Of a stretch of 64,000 nt of DNA, positions 40,357 to 47,670 are shown piece after piece. The position numbers and the translations under genes are program-made. Source of the DNA: a virus (taxonomy: Duplodnaviria > Heunggongvirae > Uroviricota > Caudoviricetes); IMG/VR virus record IMGVR_UViG_2506381019_000003, positions 19,119 to 83,118 of that record; one strand, 5' to 3'. Positions within the stretch are counted from its first letter, which is position 1. Each line of letters starts with the position of its first letter. Below the pieces are notes generated by a model. The model was not told the DNA's origin, searched no databases, and saw nothing but the letters and a program-made list of their open reading frames with translations.

Positions 40357-41702
40357 GGGGTGGGCTGGTCCTTCGCGGGGGTGATGGTGAGGGTGGGCCG
40401 GTCCAGCCACAGGTCGTCATGCAGCTCCGGCTGCGAAGCGGAGATGTAGACCTGGGAGCCATCCATCCGGCCCGGGTCGACAGTGCCGGTCACGGTGACC
40501 GTGACCCGGGTGCCGAGAGCGGGCCGTCCGTGCTCGTCCCGCTCGACGGCGGGGGGCCGGGCGACAACTCTCAGGTCCAGCTCGGCGGTGAGCCGTTCGA
40601 GCTCGGCCGTCGTCTCGGCCCACCGCGCGGCGGCTTCCGGTCCGACCAGCGCCTCGGCTGTGATCGACCCGGGCGCCGGCGTGCCGGCGTCGCCGAGGGC
40701 GCGGCGAAGGAGGAACGCTGCGCGCCGCAGGCCGGCGGCCGAACCGCGGCGCCCTGCGGCCTTACGGAGCCCGGCCGGGGTGGTGTTCGTGTCGCCGAGT
40801 GCCAGCTGGTCGGCCTCGGTGTCGAGTCGGGCGGCAAGGTCCCGCGCGGCGGCCAGCAGCCCCTCGGCCGCCAGGGCGCGCTCCTCCATCACGAGGAGGC
40901 CGGCGGTCACCCGGTCCAGCTCGGCTCCGAGACGGATAGCGGGGGATGTCTCGTCCGGGCCCCATGCCTCCAGCCGGTTCGCGCGGGCCGTGGCGTCGCG
41001 CCGCTGGCAGACGAGATCGCGGATCCGGGCACGGAGCCGGCCGCGGGCATCCTCAGCGGCGTCGGCGCGGCGTTCTGCGGCTTCCCGTGCCTGGTGCGGG
41101 GTGAGCCGGCCGGCGCGCTGCAGCCGGAAGATGAACTCGTCCATCTCGCCCGCGCGGCTGACGGTCATCTCGATGCCACGGCCGTCCGCCCGGCCTTCGT
41201 CGACATCGGCCGGCATCGAGATCGGTGTCTCGGCGTAGTTCGGGGCGTCGCCGAGCATGCCGCGGGCGGCTGCCGCCCACAGGGCGACGACTTCCCGGGC
41301 CGGTTGGAGGGAGAGGTGGACGCCGTCCGGGCCGGTGGTCATCTCCCGGAAGAGACTGGTTCGCTCGATGTGGCCTTCGACCGCGTGCTGGAGCTGCTCG
41401 GCGAGGTCGGCGATGGTCTGTTCGGCGCGGCGTTCGTACTCCATCCGGTCGACCGACCAGTTCATGCCGTCGACGGACAGGTGGTAGCCGAGGTGGTCCG
41501 GGGGGCCGATGCACACCCCGTGGTGCCACGGGTTCGGGTCCGAGTTGGGGCGGTTGGTGCCGGTGGAGATGTGGGCGCAGCCGCCTGCGGCGCGAACCTC
41601 CCGGGCCAGGGCGATCGTGGTGTCGTCCGGGCGGCTGCTCGGGTAGTAGACCGCAGCGGCAGCCGTCAGGCGGGCGCCCAGGTCGTCAGGCAGGTCAGAC
41701 AT
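40353..41702 (-). CDS. Hypothetical coiled-coil protein, 449 aa.
   Basis: ORF present in the ORF track. Confidence 0.45.
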   Translation of the reverse strand: MSDLPDDLGARLTAAAAVYYPSSRPDDTTIALAREVRAAGGCAHISTGTNRPNSDPNPWHHGVCIGPPDHLGYHLSVDGMNWSVDRMEYERRAEQTIADLAEQLQHAVEGHIERTSLFREMTTGPDGVHLSLQPAREVVALWAAAARGMLGDAPNYAETPISMPADVDEGRADGRGIEMTVSRAGEMDEFIFRLQRAGRLTPHQAREAAERRADAAEDARGRLRARIRDLVCQRRDATARANRLEAWGPDETSPAIRLGAELDRVTAGLLVMEERALAAEGLLAAARDLAARLDTEADQLALGDTNTTPAGLRKAAGRRGSAAGLRRAAFLLRRALGDAGTPAPGSITAEALVGPEAAARWAETTAELERLTAELDLRVVARPPAVERDEHGRPALGTRVTVTVTGTVDPGRMDGSQVYISASQPELHDDLWLDRPTLTITPAKDQPTP

Positions 41703-42390
41703 CGGGTGTTCCTTCGGCTCTGCTGGTGGCCTTGCGGGCGGCTTCGAGTGCGGCCGTCATCGCCCGTTCGACCCGGCCGCCGGGCCGGAAAGCGCGCTGG
41801 GGCATGCCGATCGCTGCCCGGTAGGCGGCGAGGGCGGCGGACAGCTCCCGGGTTTCCGGGGCGAGGTCGGGGGCCGGTTCGACGTCGAGGTCGTAAAGCC
41901 GGCGGAGAACGTCGCCGACCGCGCTCTCGTAGGCGATGGCGTACACCTCGGGCTCGCCGACAGACGGGGTGAAGCCACGGAGCCGGGCGAGACGCTCCCG
42001 CCGATCGGCCAGCTCGGCGCGGAGCTGGTCGCGCTCCTGCTCGGCTGTCTTGGCACGCTGACGTGCGTCGTCGCGTTCGATGCGGACTAGGCGGCCGGCG
42101 GAGATCGCGAGCCGCTTCGCCATCTCCAGCCGGCGCCGCCCATCGGGTTCGACGGCCATCTTCAGCTCGGCGGCCTCGGCCTCGGCCGCCGCGGCGGTGT
42201 GCTGCAGGGCGGAGACCTCTTGCACGGCGTTGTGCAGGACGTCGGCATCCACCCGGTCAGGTGGGCCAGCGGGGAACACGGCGGTGAGGAGGGCGCGGAG
42301 CTCGCGGACGAACCGGCCCTCGGAGTCGTCGATGGGTGTGATGAACAGGCAGGTGTGCTTGACGTCGCCGCTCATCCGGCCAACTCCCAC
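41695..42390 (-). CDS. Hypothetical coiled-coil protein, 231 aa.
   Basis: ORF present in the ORF track. Confidence 0.4.
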   Translation of the reverse strand: MGVGRMSGDVKHTCLFITPIDDSEGRFVRELRALLTAVFPAGPPDRVDADVLHNAVQEVSALQHTAAAAEAEAAELKMAVEPDGRRRLEMAKRLAISAGRLVRIERDDARQRAKTAEQERDQLRAELADRRERLARLRGFTPSVGEPEVYAIAYESAVGDVLRRLYDLDVEPAPDLAPETRELSAALAAYRAAIGMPQRAFRPGGRVERAMTAALEAARKATSRAEGTPDV

Positions 42391-42712
42391 GGGGCCAGCA
42401 CGTCGAGCGTGAGCACCTCGGCGTCGGGCCCGAGCCGGCCGGCGGCTTCCCGCGCGGCCGGCTCCTGCAGGTGCGCGCCGCCGAACGGGCGGATCCCGTT
42501 CGTGTCGGGCGCACCGACGGCGAGGAACACCCGGGTGGGCGGGGGCTGGTCGTCGGTGAAGGCGGTCTCGGCGTCTTCCAGGGCCCGGCGGGCCTGGGCG
42601 ATGTGGCGTCGGGCGGACTCCGGCCGGCCAGTCTGGGCGCAGGCACGCGCATGGCTGGCGTGGGCGGTGGCGGCGACTAGCAGGTCGACTGCAGCGGTAC
42701 TGGCCACGGGCT
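42372..42712 (-). CDS. Hypothetical protein, about 110 aa. The 5' part of the ORF-track ORF is junk.
   Basis: Only the C-terminal part is protein-like. Confidence 0.25.
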
Positions 42713-43950
42713 CACACCTCCTGGTCTGTGCGGAACGGGAGGGAGTGCTCGGGGCGCAGGGAGCGCCAGAGCGCGGGCAGGGAGGAGTAGCCGTCGAGCT
42801 CGCGGAGGACCGCGCCGCGTACCAGCGGGGTGAGGCTCTGCAGGGAGGCGAAGAACTGCTTCCGGTCATCGCGGAGGCGGTCGCGGGCGCCGAACTCGAT
42901 CTGCACGGTGTCGTGGAGGCTGGCGAGATCGGCTTCCAGGCCGTTGCGGACGCCGCGGGCCCAGTCGTCGAACTCGTCCGGGACCTGCGCGAGGAGCTCC
43001 GCGAACGGGCCGCCTTCGACAGCGCGGAGGCGGGTGATGTCGGCGGCCGGGCAGCCCAGGGTCTGGGCGAGTTCTTTGTCGGTGAGCGTCGCGGCGAAAA
43101 GCTCGACGCCGGTGTATCGCCAGACGTCGCGGGCGCTGGTTCCCGTAAGGGCCCTATGCAACCGGACATAATCGGCCATCTTGATCTTTACGCGAGTACC
43201 GGAGGCGAACCGAACGACGTAACCTTCTTCCTCCGTTCCGGAGACGGTCCGGCCTCGGTGCGTGCGGCTCTCGGTCGCCAACGCAGCGATTTCCCCGAGC
43301 GGGGGCAGGTCGACGTCGCGCCAGTGGGATGCGGACAGACCCCACGGCCAGCGGGTGGCGGTGTCCTCGTAGTCGAGTTCGGCGCCGTCGGACTGGATGG
43401 CTGCGAGGAATGTGAGCCCTTCTCCGTCGAGCCCGTAGTCGACGACGATCCTGTTCTCGGCGTAGATCATCTCGGCGAGATAGGTGACCTCGGGATTCAG
43501 GTCAGCTGTGTTCGCGAGGTCGAGCTGCCGTTGAGCCCAGAGCGCCTGTTCGCTGGCGAACGATCCCTTAGAAGCGGCGTGCCACTTCCCATCGAAGTGA
43601 AAGATGATTGCGAGTGAGCCATCTATTTTGCCGAACAGCTCGAATGGCTCGTGTAGCGGGAGCGGCGGCGCGTACGGCCTCCCCGCTAGGTGCTCCCCGT
43701 AGTTGAAGAACTTCTCGAAGGGCCGGGCGATGACACGGCCGCTGGCGCGGTGGACGACCAGGCCGCGGCACCGTGTGGTGATCGCGTCCCACTCGGCCTT
43801 GTACTGGCAGGTCCGGGTGTAGGTGAGGATGTCGAGCGGCAGGTCGGGGTGGGGCTTGCGGGTGACCAGCCCGGCCGTGATGTGCCGGTCGAGCTGGTCG
43901 AGGTCGAACAGGTCGTAGATGTGGACCGGCGCGGGGGCGGTGGTGGTCAT
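42712..43950 (-). CDS. ATP-dependent RNA ligase, nucleotidyltransferase superfamily.
   Basis: Motif I 'ELFGKIDGSLAII' (KxDG lysine). 412 aa. Adjacent to the pnkp gene. Confidence 0.6.
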   Translation of the reverse strand: MTTTAPAPVHIYDLFDLDQLDRHITAGLVTRKPHPDLPLDILTYTRTCQYKAEWDAITTRCRGLVVHRASGRVIARPFEKFFNYGEHLAGRPYAPPLPLHEPFELFGKIDGSLAIIFHFDGKWHAASKGSFASEQALWAQRQLDLANTADLNPEVTYLAEMIYAENRIVVDYGLDGEGLTFLAAIQSDGAELDYEDTATRWPWGLSASHWRDVDLPPLGEIAALATESRTHRGRTVSGTEEEGYVVRFASGTRVKIKMADYVRLHRALTGTSARDVWRYTGVELFAATLTDKELAQTLGCPAADITRLRAVEGGPFAELLAQVPDEFDDWARGVRNGLEADLASLHDTVQIEFGARDRLRDDRKQFFASLQSLTPLVRGAVLRELDGYSSLPALWRSLRPEHSLPFRTDQEV

Positions 43951-44894
43951 CAGAAATTGCCTTCTGCGACTTGGAAAACGGTCAGGCCGATCTGGCGCCA
44001 GCCCGCAACAACGGAAGCCCGGTCGTCGAAAACCCCGGTAACCCGGTAGTTGTGGCGGATCTCCCGATCGAAGATCTCCATCTTCACGATGAGGTCTTTG
44101 CGGGAGTCGCCAATGGCGCGCATGAACAGGCCCTCGTGCGGGCGGCGGACGTAGGAGGAGAGCCAGGCGTGGGTGTCCGCGCGGCAGCCGGCGGAGCGGC
44201 CGGACAGGTAGATGATGCGGTGGCCGGCGGACTGCATTGCCTTGACGGCGATGATGACCGGCCAGTTCGGCAGGTCCTCAGAGACGCGGTTTTCGTCGTA
44301 CGGGTCGCGTCCGTTGTGGAGGCACAGGGTGCCGTCCAGGTCGACCAGAATGGCGTCCGGCTTGCCCTCGGGCAGGGTGTAGGGCAGGAACACCGGCGTG
44401 GGATGGATCTTGGGGAGTTCGAGGGGCAGCTTCTTCCCTGCCAGGAAACGGCGGTGCTGGTTGCGGATCGCCTGCTCGCCCACCCGGGCGCCCGTGACCG
44501 CGCCGGGCATGGGCTCCGGGCGGAGCGTGTCACGGCGGACGCACAGCTCCACGTCGACGTCGGTCAGGTCGAGTACGGAGAACAGGGCGCCGGCCCGGAG
44601 CGCGGTCTCCATCCAGTGACGTACGTACTGGGCGGCCAGGTTCATCTCGTCGACGATCACGTTCACGCCGGCGCGGAGCAGGGTGTTGACCTGGGCGTCG
44701 CGGACGGCGGTCACGTGCTTCTCGCCTGCGGTGTCGCCGTAGGTGAGGCCGAGCTGGTCGCGGAGCGGGTCGCGGCTCACCACCACGGCGCGGTGGCCGG
44801 CGGCGCGGAGCTGGTCACGGCGGCGGCGGGCCGCGGTGCTCTTCCCGGAGCCGGGCAGGCCGCGGGTGATGGTCAGGGTGGGACGGTCGGTCAC
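43950..44894 (-). CDS. pnkp: Polynucleotide kinase-phosphatase: P-loop kinase domain plus HAD-type 3'-phosphatase domain.
   Basis: 'TITRGLPGSGKST' Walker A and 'AILVDLDGTLCLH' DxDGT motif. GTGA-overlap start. Confidence 0.7.
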   Translation of the reverse strand: MTDRPTLTITRGLPGSGKSTAARRRRDQLRAAGHRAVVVSRDPLRDQLGLTYGDTAGEKHVTAVRDAQVNTLLRAGVNVIVDEMNLAAQYVRHWMETALRAGALFSVLDLTDVDVELCVRRDTLRPEPMPGAVTGARVGEQAIRNQHRRFLAGKKLPLELPKIHPTPVFLPYTLPEGKPDAILVDLDGTLCLHNGRDPYDENRVSEDLPNWPVIIAVKAMQSAGHRIIYLSGRSAGCRADTHAWLSSYVRRPHEGLFMRAIGDSRKDLIVKMEIFDREIRHNYRVTGVFDDRASVVAGWRQIGLTVFQVAEGNF

Positions 44895-45826
44895 AGCCTC
44901 CGCTCCCTGATCGGCCCGCCGGCCTGCGGTTCGACGTAGCCGGTGCCCGCGCAGTGCCCGCACGGCGTCTCGGCTACGGCCTCCGCAACATCGGCACACA
45001 CCTCCGCGGTGAATTCCTCCAACGTCGCGAGAGCGGCAACGACGTTCTCCCCGCGGATCTCACGCCCGAGATGGACGGTGAAGTACAACGTTCGCCGGTC
45101 GGGCTTGTTCTCGAAGCGGGGTCGACGTGCCCGGGGCCCGGACACGTCCACCCGGATCGTTCGTCCCGGCTGGTAGGCCCGGCGGACCGTGAGGTTGAAC
45201 TCGTGCGGGTTGCTGTGATCCCACCAGTCGATATCCGCAGTTGGAACCGCGCGCCGGACAGCGTCTACCAATCCCCGCTGATAGCCGGTCAGCTTGCCGG
45301 GGAACAGCCGGCCATATTCCGGCCAGTTACCCAGCACGTAGGGAAGATCCGGTGTCCAACTGCAGCCGGAAGGAAGAACCGGGAGGTCTCCATCCAGGAG
45401 GATGGCGTCGGAGATCTCCAGGGTGACAATGTCGCCGGGAACATCCTCACGGATCGTCCGGTACAGGAGCCCGAAGGTCTCCCAATCCTGATCCAGCCTT
45501 TTCCTGCCCTCCTCCACGGTGAGGGTGAGCGGGTACTTCGCCGACTCGGTTTCCGGGTCCTCAAGCTGGTAACCGGTCACGCGGGTGCTACCAGGAAGGT
45601 GTGCGTGGAGCGGGCCCGCTGTGCCGGTGGGGACGATCCACCAGTTCTCGACCGGCAGCGCCTGAAGGCGTGTTCCGTCGGCGGTGGTCCATCGGTCGAT
45701 GGAGGTCCAACTTCCCTGGGGCTTCGCGGGGACGTCGGCACCGCGGTCGTTAAGGCCCTCCGTGGTGCTGGGCAGATGGTAGGCGGTGCGCCCATCGGGC
45801 AGCCGGATGGCGAAGCGGTCAGGCAT
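44891..45826 (-). CDS. Hypothetical protein, 311 aa.
   Basis: ORF present in the ORF track. Confidence 0.4.
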   Translation of the reverse strand: MPDRFAIRLPDGRTAYHLPSTTEGLNDRGADVPAKPQGSWTSIDRWTTADGTRLQALPVENWWIVPTGTAGPLHAHLPGSTRVTGYQLEDPETESAKYPLTLTVEEGRKRLDQDWETFGLLYRTIREDVPGDIVTLEISDAILLDGDLPVLPSGCSWTPDLPYVLGNWPEYGRLFPGKLTGYQRGLVDAVRRAVPTADIDWWDHSNPHEFNLTVRRAYQPGRTIRVDVSGPRARRPRFENKPDRRTLYFTVHLGREIRGENVVAALATLEEFTAEVCADVAEAVAETPCGHCAGTGYVEPQAGGPIRERRL

Positions 45827-46256
45827 CGGAGGTCACCGGCTTCCCGCCACGGAGAACCAGCGTCAGGCCGGCGGGGAGGTCCTCCGGGCCGATGAAGACG
45901 CCGTCCGAGCGGACCCATGGGTGGTAGTCCCGGGGGGCGTCGGGTGCGTAGAAGAACGTCCGCTCGTCGTCTTCGGCGGTGACGACGTCGCCGGGCTCGG
46001 CCATGGCCGGGTCGTACGGCGGCGGCGGGGTGACCAGCCGGCCGTCGCGGAGCAGGAGCCGGGTGTCCTCGGGGAAGGCACTGGCTCCGTACCAGTCCCA
46101 GTCCCTGCCGCTTTGCATCGTGCCGGCCCAGGGCTCGTTGTCGTCAGCGATCAGCGTCCACACACGCCCCGTTGAGGGCGAGAAGGCGACGTCGCCCTGC
46201 TGGTAGGGCGCCCCGTCTTTGAAAGGGATGCCGGGCAGGTCGTCCTGAACAGTCAT
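45819..46256 (-). CDS. Hypothetical protein, 145 aa.
   Basis: ORF present in the ORF track. Confidence 0.4.
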   Translation of the reverse strand: MTVQDDLPGIPFKDGAPYQQGDVAFSPSTGRVWTLIADDNEPWAGTMQSGRDWDWYGASAFPEDTRLLLRDGRLVTPPPPYDPAMAEPGDVVTAEDDERTFFYAPDAPRDYHPWVRSDGVFIGPEDLPAGLTLVLRGGKPVTSDA

Positions 46257-46293
46257 GGTCGTTTCCGTTTCTGCTGGTGTCCGGGCCTGTACC

Positions 46294-46336
46294 GGCGCTG
46301 TCCCGACCCGATCGGGGGGGAAGGTCGGGACAGCGC
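46294..46336. terminator. Hairpin with a 13-bp perfect stem (GGCGCTGTCCCGACC...GGTCGGGACAGCGC).
   Basis: Inverted repeat in a 185-bp gap. Confidence 0.45.
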
Positions 46337-46441
46337 TGGAACCGGTCCGGGGGTGGGGGCTGGTGTCGACCGGCTATGCCCCCGTGCGGGTGCTGCGGTG
46401 AGTCCCGCAGCAGACGGCCATCCGCCAGCCCCGGACCGGTC

Positions 46442-46705
46442 TCAGTAGGCGCAGGTGTGCTTGATGTAGACGGCCGGCACCTGCACGGCCTCGGCGCCCG
46501 GCCACAGATCCGCCGTCAGCCGCCGGACGGTCTCCTCGTCCCGGTTGCACTGCGGGGAGCCGCGGTAGAACAGCAGCAGGAGCTCGCCGGCTTCGTCGCG
46601 GACGGTGGACCACCAGTAGTCGGCGTAGATCTTGTAGATGCCCGTTTGGGGTGTCGTGAGGTCTGCCGCGGGGATCGTTCGTGCGTGGGACAGGCCGATG
46701 CTCAT
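46442..46705 (-). CDS. Hypothetical protein, about 87 aa.
   Basis: Start 'MSIGLSH'. Upstream sequence in the ORF is junk. Confidence 0.4.
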   Translation of the reverse strand: MSIGLSHARTIPAADLTTPQTGIYKIYADYWWSTVRDEAGELLLLFYRGSPQCNRDEETVRRLTADLWPGAEAVQVPAVYIKHTCAY

Positions 46706-46788
46706 CGCGGTCTCCTCTCTCTCGCTGGTGCTGGTGGGCGGTCTGGTGGGCGGGGCGGTCTCGGGGAGTGACACGCCCCGCCCGGGTC

Positions 46789-47107
46789 TCAGCGGCCGGC
46801 TTGGGTCCGCCAGTACCGGGCTGTCAGCCGTGGGTTTGTGGACCGGATGAGATGCGGATTGCGCGCGCGGAACTGGGCGGCGGCCCGGCGGGCGTTGCGG
46901 AGCAGGTGGTCGACGGGGACGGTTAGGCCGGATCCGCTCCACGGGTCCTGGGCGCTGCACGGCCCGCCGTGGCCGGCCGACCCGACGAACGCGACCGGTT
47001 TTGCCAGGTCGGCCAGGCAGGGCTCGCAGGGCGCCAGGGCCGGGCTGTTCTGCCGGGCGAACGCGGCGAACCACTCCTTGCGCCGGACGTCCACGACGGA
47101 CATGTGG
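46789..47107 (-). CDS. Hypothetical protein, about 105 aa.
   Basis: Start 'MSVVDVRRKEWF'. Confidence 0.35.
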
Positions 47108-47187
47108 ACTGGGCTCCTCTCGGCTGGTGATGGTCTGGGCGGGTGGGGCGCCCCGTTCACGCGCCCCACCCGGGTCTCAGGGGAAGG

Positions 47188-47670
47188 TCAGAACGGGGAT
47201 TCGCCCGTCACGGGGACATCGGCGGGAAGCTCCGGAGTGCAGTCCGGGCACGCCTGGCCGTCCTCCGGCCCATCCGCGATGGAGCCGTAGCCGCCGCAGG
47301 TCTTGCACGGGAGCTGGGCGCGGACCAGGTCCGGGTCGTGCATCTCGCCGCGCTTGGCTGCGATGCGGAGCAGCTCGCGGCCGAGTTCCTCCATGCCCCG
47401 GAAGTCGAAGAACTTCAGGACCGCGCCAACCTTGTCGCCGTCCGGGTCGGGCAGGACGATCTGGACGTAGCCGCCCGAGCGGTAGCGGGCCATCACGCCG
47501 GCTTCCAGGTCCGTGCCGTACGGGTAGCTGTCGGCGTCCCCAATGTCCACCAGGGGGAGACGGACGTAGGCGGGCGGGTACTGGGCGACAGCCCCGATGT
47601 CGATCACGTTCTTTCCGCTGCGCCGAGCGACGAGGGCGGCGCCGAGGGGCTCGCAGTCTTCGCGGGTCAT
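47188..47670 (-). CDS. Hypothetical protein, 160 aa, with a C-terminal Cys cluster.
   Basis: ORF present in the ORF track. Confidence 0.4.
   Translation of the reverse strand: MTREDCEPLGAALVARRSGKNVIDIGAVAQYPPAYVRLPLVDIGDADSYPYGTDLEAGVMARYRSGGYVQIVLPDPDGDKVGAVLKFFDFRGMEELGRELLRIAAKRGEMHDPDLVRAQLPCKTCGGYGSIADGPEDGQACPDCTPELPADVPVTGESPF

Follow-up and report, generated by a model that had tools for sequence, protein, structure and literature searches.

Results

The window, by which we mean the whole stretch of 64,000 nucleotides of viral DNA that was analyzed, is a temperate phage region of ~70% G+C with genes for an integrase, a repressor-like HTH protein, the large terminase, a portal protein and capsid proteins. 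Within it, on the minus strand, a gene for a protein resembling polynucleotide kinase-phosphatase (Pnkp) is followed directly by a gene for an RNA ligase (Table 1). An earlier note on this DNA had placed two adjacent, coupled genes at 42712–44894; when we checked the open reading frames, both were found at exactly these coordinates, and the TGATG sequence in which they overlap is an arrangement compatible with translational coupling. Pnkp-then-ligase order and the one-base overlap are also seen in two related metagenomic contigs, L010 and L014, one of which looks phage-like, with a WhiB gene and numerous small genes on the same strand. Each of the two proteins has a 100% identical entry from Parafrankia sp. 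EUN1f, which for the Pnkp-like protein is EFC80084.1/WP_006544675.1, and dN/dS relative to the nearest orthologs is 0.40 for Pnkp and 0.50 for the ligase.

Table 1. Positions in the window of the gene pair, its junctions and the neighboring genes
Feature	Position	Strand	Basis or remark
Small conserved downstream gene, 111 aa	42372..42707	-	Direct sequence reading
Predicted ATP-dependent RNA ligase (Rnl1-type adenylyltransferase domain), 412 aa	42712..43950	-	PF09511, phrog_562
TGATG junction: Pnkp stop and ligase ATG start, one base in common	43948..43952	-	Direct sequence reading
Predicted bifunctional polynucleotide 5′-kinase / 3′-phosphatase (T4 Pnkp type), 314 aa	43950..44894	-	PF13671, PF25109, phrog_505, PDB matches
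GTGA junction: Pnkp GTG start over the stop codon of the 311-aa gene upstream	44891..44894	-	Direct sequence reading
Gene between the 145-aa gene and Pnkp, 311 aa	44891..45826	-	Ends in a CxxCxGxG motif
Conserved upstream neighbor, 145 aa	45819..46256	-	69% identical to L010:60-488

The Pnkp-like protein combines both domains expected of its family in a single polypeptide, with the kinase first according to Pfam domain coordinates: an N-terminal P-loop kinase (~residues 7–150; PF13671, 1.3e-13) and a C-terminal HAD (DxDGT) phosphatase (residues 179–314; PF25109, 1.7e-48, 164.8 bits where the cut-off is 27.6, with the whole profile covered). Among phage protein families it matches phrog_505, 'polynucleotide kinase' (1.7e-79). 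Matches of this strength, like the Pfam and PHROG matches of the ligase given below, lie well outside chance. The P-loop reads G12-L-P-G-S-G-K18-S19 and the phosphatase motif D185-L-D187-G-T189, which, with these family matches, upholds the earlier description of a P-loop kinase joined to a DxDGT phosphatase. In an alignment to T4 Pnkp, the kinase residues D42, R45 and R125 are kept together with K18 and S19, as are the phosphatase residues R196, R233, D267, D290 and D291. All 12 T4 residues considered have counterparts, namely K15, S16, the catalytic Asp D35 and the two Arg R38 and R126, which we take from mutational studies to be the essentials of the kinase, and D165 and D167 of the DxDGT nucleophile motif, R176, R213, D254, D277 and D278, which are presumably those of the phosphatase. 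The public annotation of this protein is weak, reading only 'AAA family ATPase / phosphatase domain-containing protein', and is corrected by the present assignment.

The partner protein, named 'T4 RnlA family RNA ligase' by NCBI, consists of an Rnl1-type adenylyltransferase domain (~residues 1–258) and an all-helical C-terminal domain (~residues 259–400). Its motif I, K108-I-D110-G111, conforms to KxDG, and K108 is the predicted AMP-accepting lysine. K108/D110/G111, E160, E242-G243 and K255/K257 align with K99/D101/G102, E159, E227/G228 and K240/K242 of T4 Rnl1, and the residues of the T4 enzyme that we take, from its mutational studies, to be essential are all kept (12 of 12, in motifs I, III, IV and V and the N-terminal sub-domain). 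Within that Rnl1-type sub-domain there are counterparts of T4 Arg54 and Lys75, which contact the ATP γ-phosphate, and of a nearby essential Phe, presumably Phe77. Arg54 and Lys75 have been confirmed as important, and Phe76 has been named as the adenine contact (PMC6379707).

Family searches gave a Pfam match above its cut-off (PF09511, 1.8e-17, 64.4 bits versus 28.3), a score below the cut-off of the NCBIfam equivalog TIGR02308 (44.3 bits versus 242) and a match to phrog_562, 'RNA ligase and tail fiber protein attachment catalyst' (5.1e-47). When the two proteins were compared with T4 Pnkp and Rnl1, as the earlier note had proposed, matches to both were obtained: 1ltq for the Pnkp-like protein (9.2e-24) and 2c5u for the ligase (2.4e-6), the latter joined by a profile-profile alignment of residues 38–387 to a T4-like Rnl1 family (99.8% probability, E 5e-29). 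Neither a DNA ligase nor an mRNA capping enzyme, with its OB-fold C-domain, was the best structural and sequence match, and the identification as a KxDG RNA ligase, which that outcome would have overturned, stands. The similarity of the C-terminal domain to its T4 counterpart is marginal, barely recognizable. It is the domain attached to the NTase core that defines an RNA ligase family, and the tRNA specificity of T4 Rnl1 is conferred by its all-helical C-terminal domain (PMC6379707). The GTDB representative genomes, scanned with the ligase sequence, gave no match.

The pair lies inside a run of same-strand genes that overlap or abut from 46256 to ~39838, with the integrase and HTH genes pointing the other way; it is among early/non-structural genes, and the block that encodes the terminase, portal and capsid proteins is ~24 kb away. 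The 145-aa gene, which has no Pfam or PHROG match, adjoins Pnkp directly in L010, the nearest relative. The 311-aa gene that separates them in the window is without Pfam, PHROG or PADLOC matches; we considered it as a third component and rejected it, since L010 has no homolog and the module therefore does not depend on the gene. On the other side, the 111-aa gene begins 5 bases beyond the end of the ligase gene and overlaps the gene after it, stop codon on start codon, as ATGA. In L010, too, the ligase is followed by a homologous ORF (56% identity), and the only other similarity is a weak TPR_4 match.

Further scans were negative within their scope. PADLOC found no defense-system match for the pair and its neighbors; across the full window, the tRNA and Rfam scans had no match at the gathering threshold; a near-identity DNA search of 42000–46000 against deposited phages gave no match; and promoter and terminator candidates at 41500–47500 scored no better than shuffled sequence, in a scan that is weak for this organism. 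Elsewhere, the phage encodes a Ro/TROVE protein, whose gene is ~15 kb from the pair, and an SPFH protein. When Rfam was searched permissively in the surroundings of the TROVE gene, the only results were sub-threshold hairpin (miRNA-like) matches, with no Y-RNA/YrlA-like match among them. Two other viral contigs, L031 and L032, contain a TROVE-ligase-Pnkp cluster.

Compared with T4 Pnkp (pseT) and Rnl1 (rnlA, gp63), MAFFT identity is low, at 33% for Pnkp and 24% for the ligase. T4 has rnlA ahead of pseT with four genes in between, whereas in the window Pnkp comes first and the genes overlap. The carrier also differs, being a temperate actinobacterial phage of high G+C content; the window lacks tRNA genes, and the ligase ends in a domain that is hardly T4-like. 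We know of no trigger and nuclease pair of the Stp/PrrC type in the Parafrankia host.

Members of the same gene families are paired in Arthrobacter phages Bauer and Seahorse (cluster AQ), Streptomyces phages such as LukeCage, mycobacteriophages of clusters J, E and L and Microbacterium phages of cluster ED. Alignments to the actinophage proteins extend over 94–97% of the ligase, including the C-terminal domain, and 97–98% of Pnkp, at tblastn identities of 30–34% and 36–42%, respectively. The two genes adjoin in Bauer and are ~750 bp apart in LukeCage. In these phages the ligase precedes Pnkp, in contrast to the window and its two closest relatives.

The closest ligase homologs (47–51% identity) are in Streptomyces chromosomal cassettes and the closest named Pnkp homologs (50–55%) in Micromonosporaceae chromosomes, both in non-phage contexts. 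There the two genes are adjacent as in the window, but with the ligase before Pnkp. In the Streptomyces cassette, which lies on chromosome arms among unrelated flanking genes, a 472-aa DEAD-box helicase follows Pnkp, and in Longispora fulva the pair lies between rpmE/prfA and rho. To our knowledge, these chromosomal ligase-Pnkp(-DEAD-box helicase) cassettes have been annotated and not characterized. The pair in the window looks mosaic, since its two genes have their best relatives in different bacterial families.

Among solved structures, the best sequence match of the window's Pnkp is Pnkp1 (4xrp, chain 4xrp_A; E 4.1e-35, full length, residues 5–314), and both are T4-Pnkp-like kinase-phosphatases that act with a separate ligase. 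We rejected identity with the Pnkp1-Rnl-Hen1 complex: the window's ligase is of a different clade, and the partner ligase of the bacterial Pnkp-C/Rnl type and the Hen1 2′-O-methyltransferase that mark this complex were not found. A 636-aa fusion of a ligase and a kinase domain (P0105) was set aside as evidence for physical association, since its sole source is one read-assembly contig and the fusion could be an artifact of assembly or of a frameshift.

Discussion

The earlier note had proposed an RNA-repair pair of the T4 Pnkp-Rnl1 type, and the family and PDB matches, the residue conservation and the linkage in related phages support this proposal. We think it probable, judging from sequence, that a Parafrankia sp. 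EUN1f temperate phage or prophage carries, in its long leftward operon of lytic type, an RNA-repair module of the T4 'heal and seal' kind formed by the two genes. The likeliest role of this module would be the mending of cut translation RNAs. This reading builds on the gene structure, the domain content, the conservation of catalytic residues, the predicted fold and the linkage in related phages described above; from these we infer enzymatic activity, RNA or tRNA as the substrate, expression during lytic growth and a counter-defense purpose.

How might such a module operate? Metal-independent ribotoxins and anticodon nucleases leave breaks with a 2′,3′-cyclic phosphate (or 3′-phosphate) on one side and a 5′-OH on the other. 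Such a break would first be healed by the 314-aa enzyme, whose C-terminal HAD phosphatase would take off the 3′ phosphate with Asp185 of D185-x-D187-G-T as the nucleophile and whose N-terminal P-loop kinase (K18/S19, D42, R45, R125) would phosphorylate the 5′-OH. The 412-aa ligase could then seal the 3′-OH/5′-phosphate ends by the classic three-step route, in which ATP adenylylates Lys108, AMP is passed to the 5′-phosphate and the 3′-OH attacks. The one-base gene overlap would favor co-production of both enzymes. The restored targets would most likely be translation RNAs, above all tRNAs, cut during infection.

A counter-defense role for Pnk and RNA ligase has been proposed in actinophages (PMC3706429; PMC7302621; PMC5513430; PMC7824862), and in mycobacteriophage clusters J, E and L the two travel together with tRNAs (PMC3706429). 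We count the lack of tRNA genes in the window against such a role. Moreover, the nearest ligase and the nearest named Pnkp homologs are chromosomal and non-phage, and the module is therefore not specific to counter-defense. It could instead be a general cellular-type RNA repair module that rides on the prophage and benefits the lysogen or maintains RNA, mending tRNA, rRNA or mRNA after cuts that stem from toxin-antitoxin RNases, secreted ribotoxins or stress, with no specific role against anticodon nucleases. The ligase is indeed closer to proteins in many Streptomyces chromosomes than to those of isolated actinophages; the conserved Streptomyces cassette, the Longispora fulva pair and the Micromonosporaceae relatives of Pnkp fit this explanation, as do the SPFH and Ro/TROVE proteins of the phage, TROVE being part of cellular RNA-repair platforms (PMC7824862). 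However, the pair overlaps genes of the long phage run that opposes the integrase and HTH genes, recurs with the same order and overlap in the phage-like contig, and showed no promoter or terminator of its own, albeit in a weak scan, and we regard a purely cellular-type function as rather unlikely.

Two further explanations depart from RNA repair. T4 Pnkp acts on DNA ends too, and Lsr2-like and FtsK-like proteins are encoded nearby in the phage, both of which would suit a module that heals 5′-OH/3′-phosphate DNA ends and seals DNA in phage genome repair or replication; we nevertheless consider this very improbable. That the ligase has mainly a non-catalytic role in virion assembly, resembling tail-fiber attachment by T4 gp63, with its pairing to Pnkp incidental, is suggested by its best PHROG name, but seems scarcely credible, as the name derives from the annotation of T4, the catalytic residues are without exception conserved, the gene belongs to the early/non-structural set far from the structural block, and linkage to Pnkp recurs in many lineages.

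If the pair does constitute a heal-and-seal module, what might its targets be in actinobacteria, where toxin RNases are abundant? We tentatively suggest that the actinobacterial ligases may form a separate RNA-ligase clade, in which an Rnl1-type adenylyltransferase is combined with a C-terminal domain that has diverged for a target not of the T4 type, such as rRNA or tRNAs cut by actinobacterial toxin RNases. The Streptomyces ligase-Pnkp-DEAD-box helicase cassette might then be a cellular RNA-repair system from which temperate phages have borrowed parts, in some cases to work with a Ro/TROVE protein.

Phages of Mycobacterium, Arthrobacter and Microbacterium are known to carry pairs of RNA ligase and polynucleotide kinase, and the pair in the window is one more example of a well-known class, although we know of no earlier example in a Frankia-group prophage. 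Heal-and-seal pairs are also common in non-phage chromosomes, with a DEAD-box helicase in Streptomyces and next to prfA and rho in Micromonosporaceae. These chromosomal pairs point to a little-studied cellular RNA-repair pathway in antibiotic-producing actinobacteria, parts of which would be exchanged between hosts and temperate phages.

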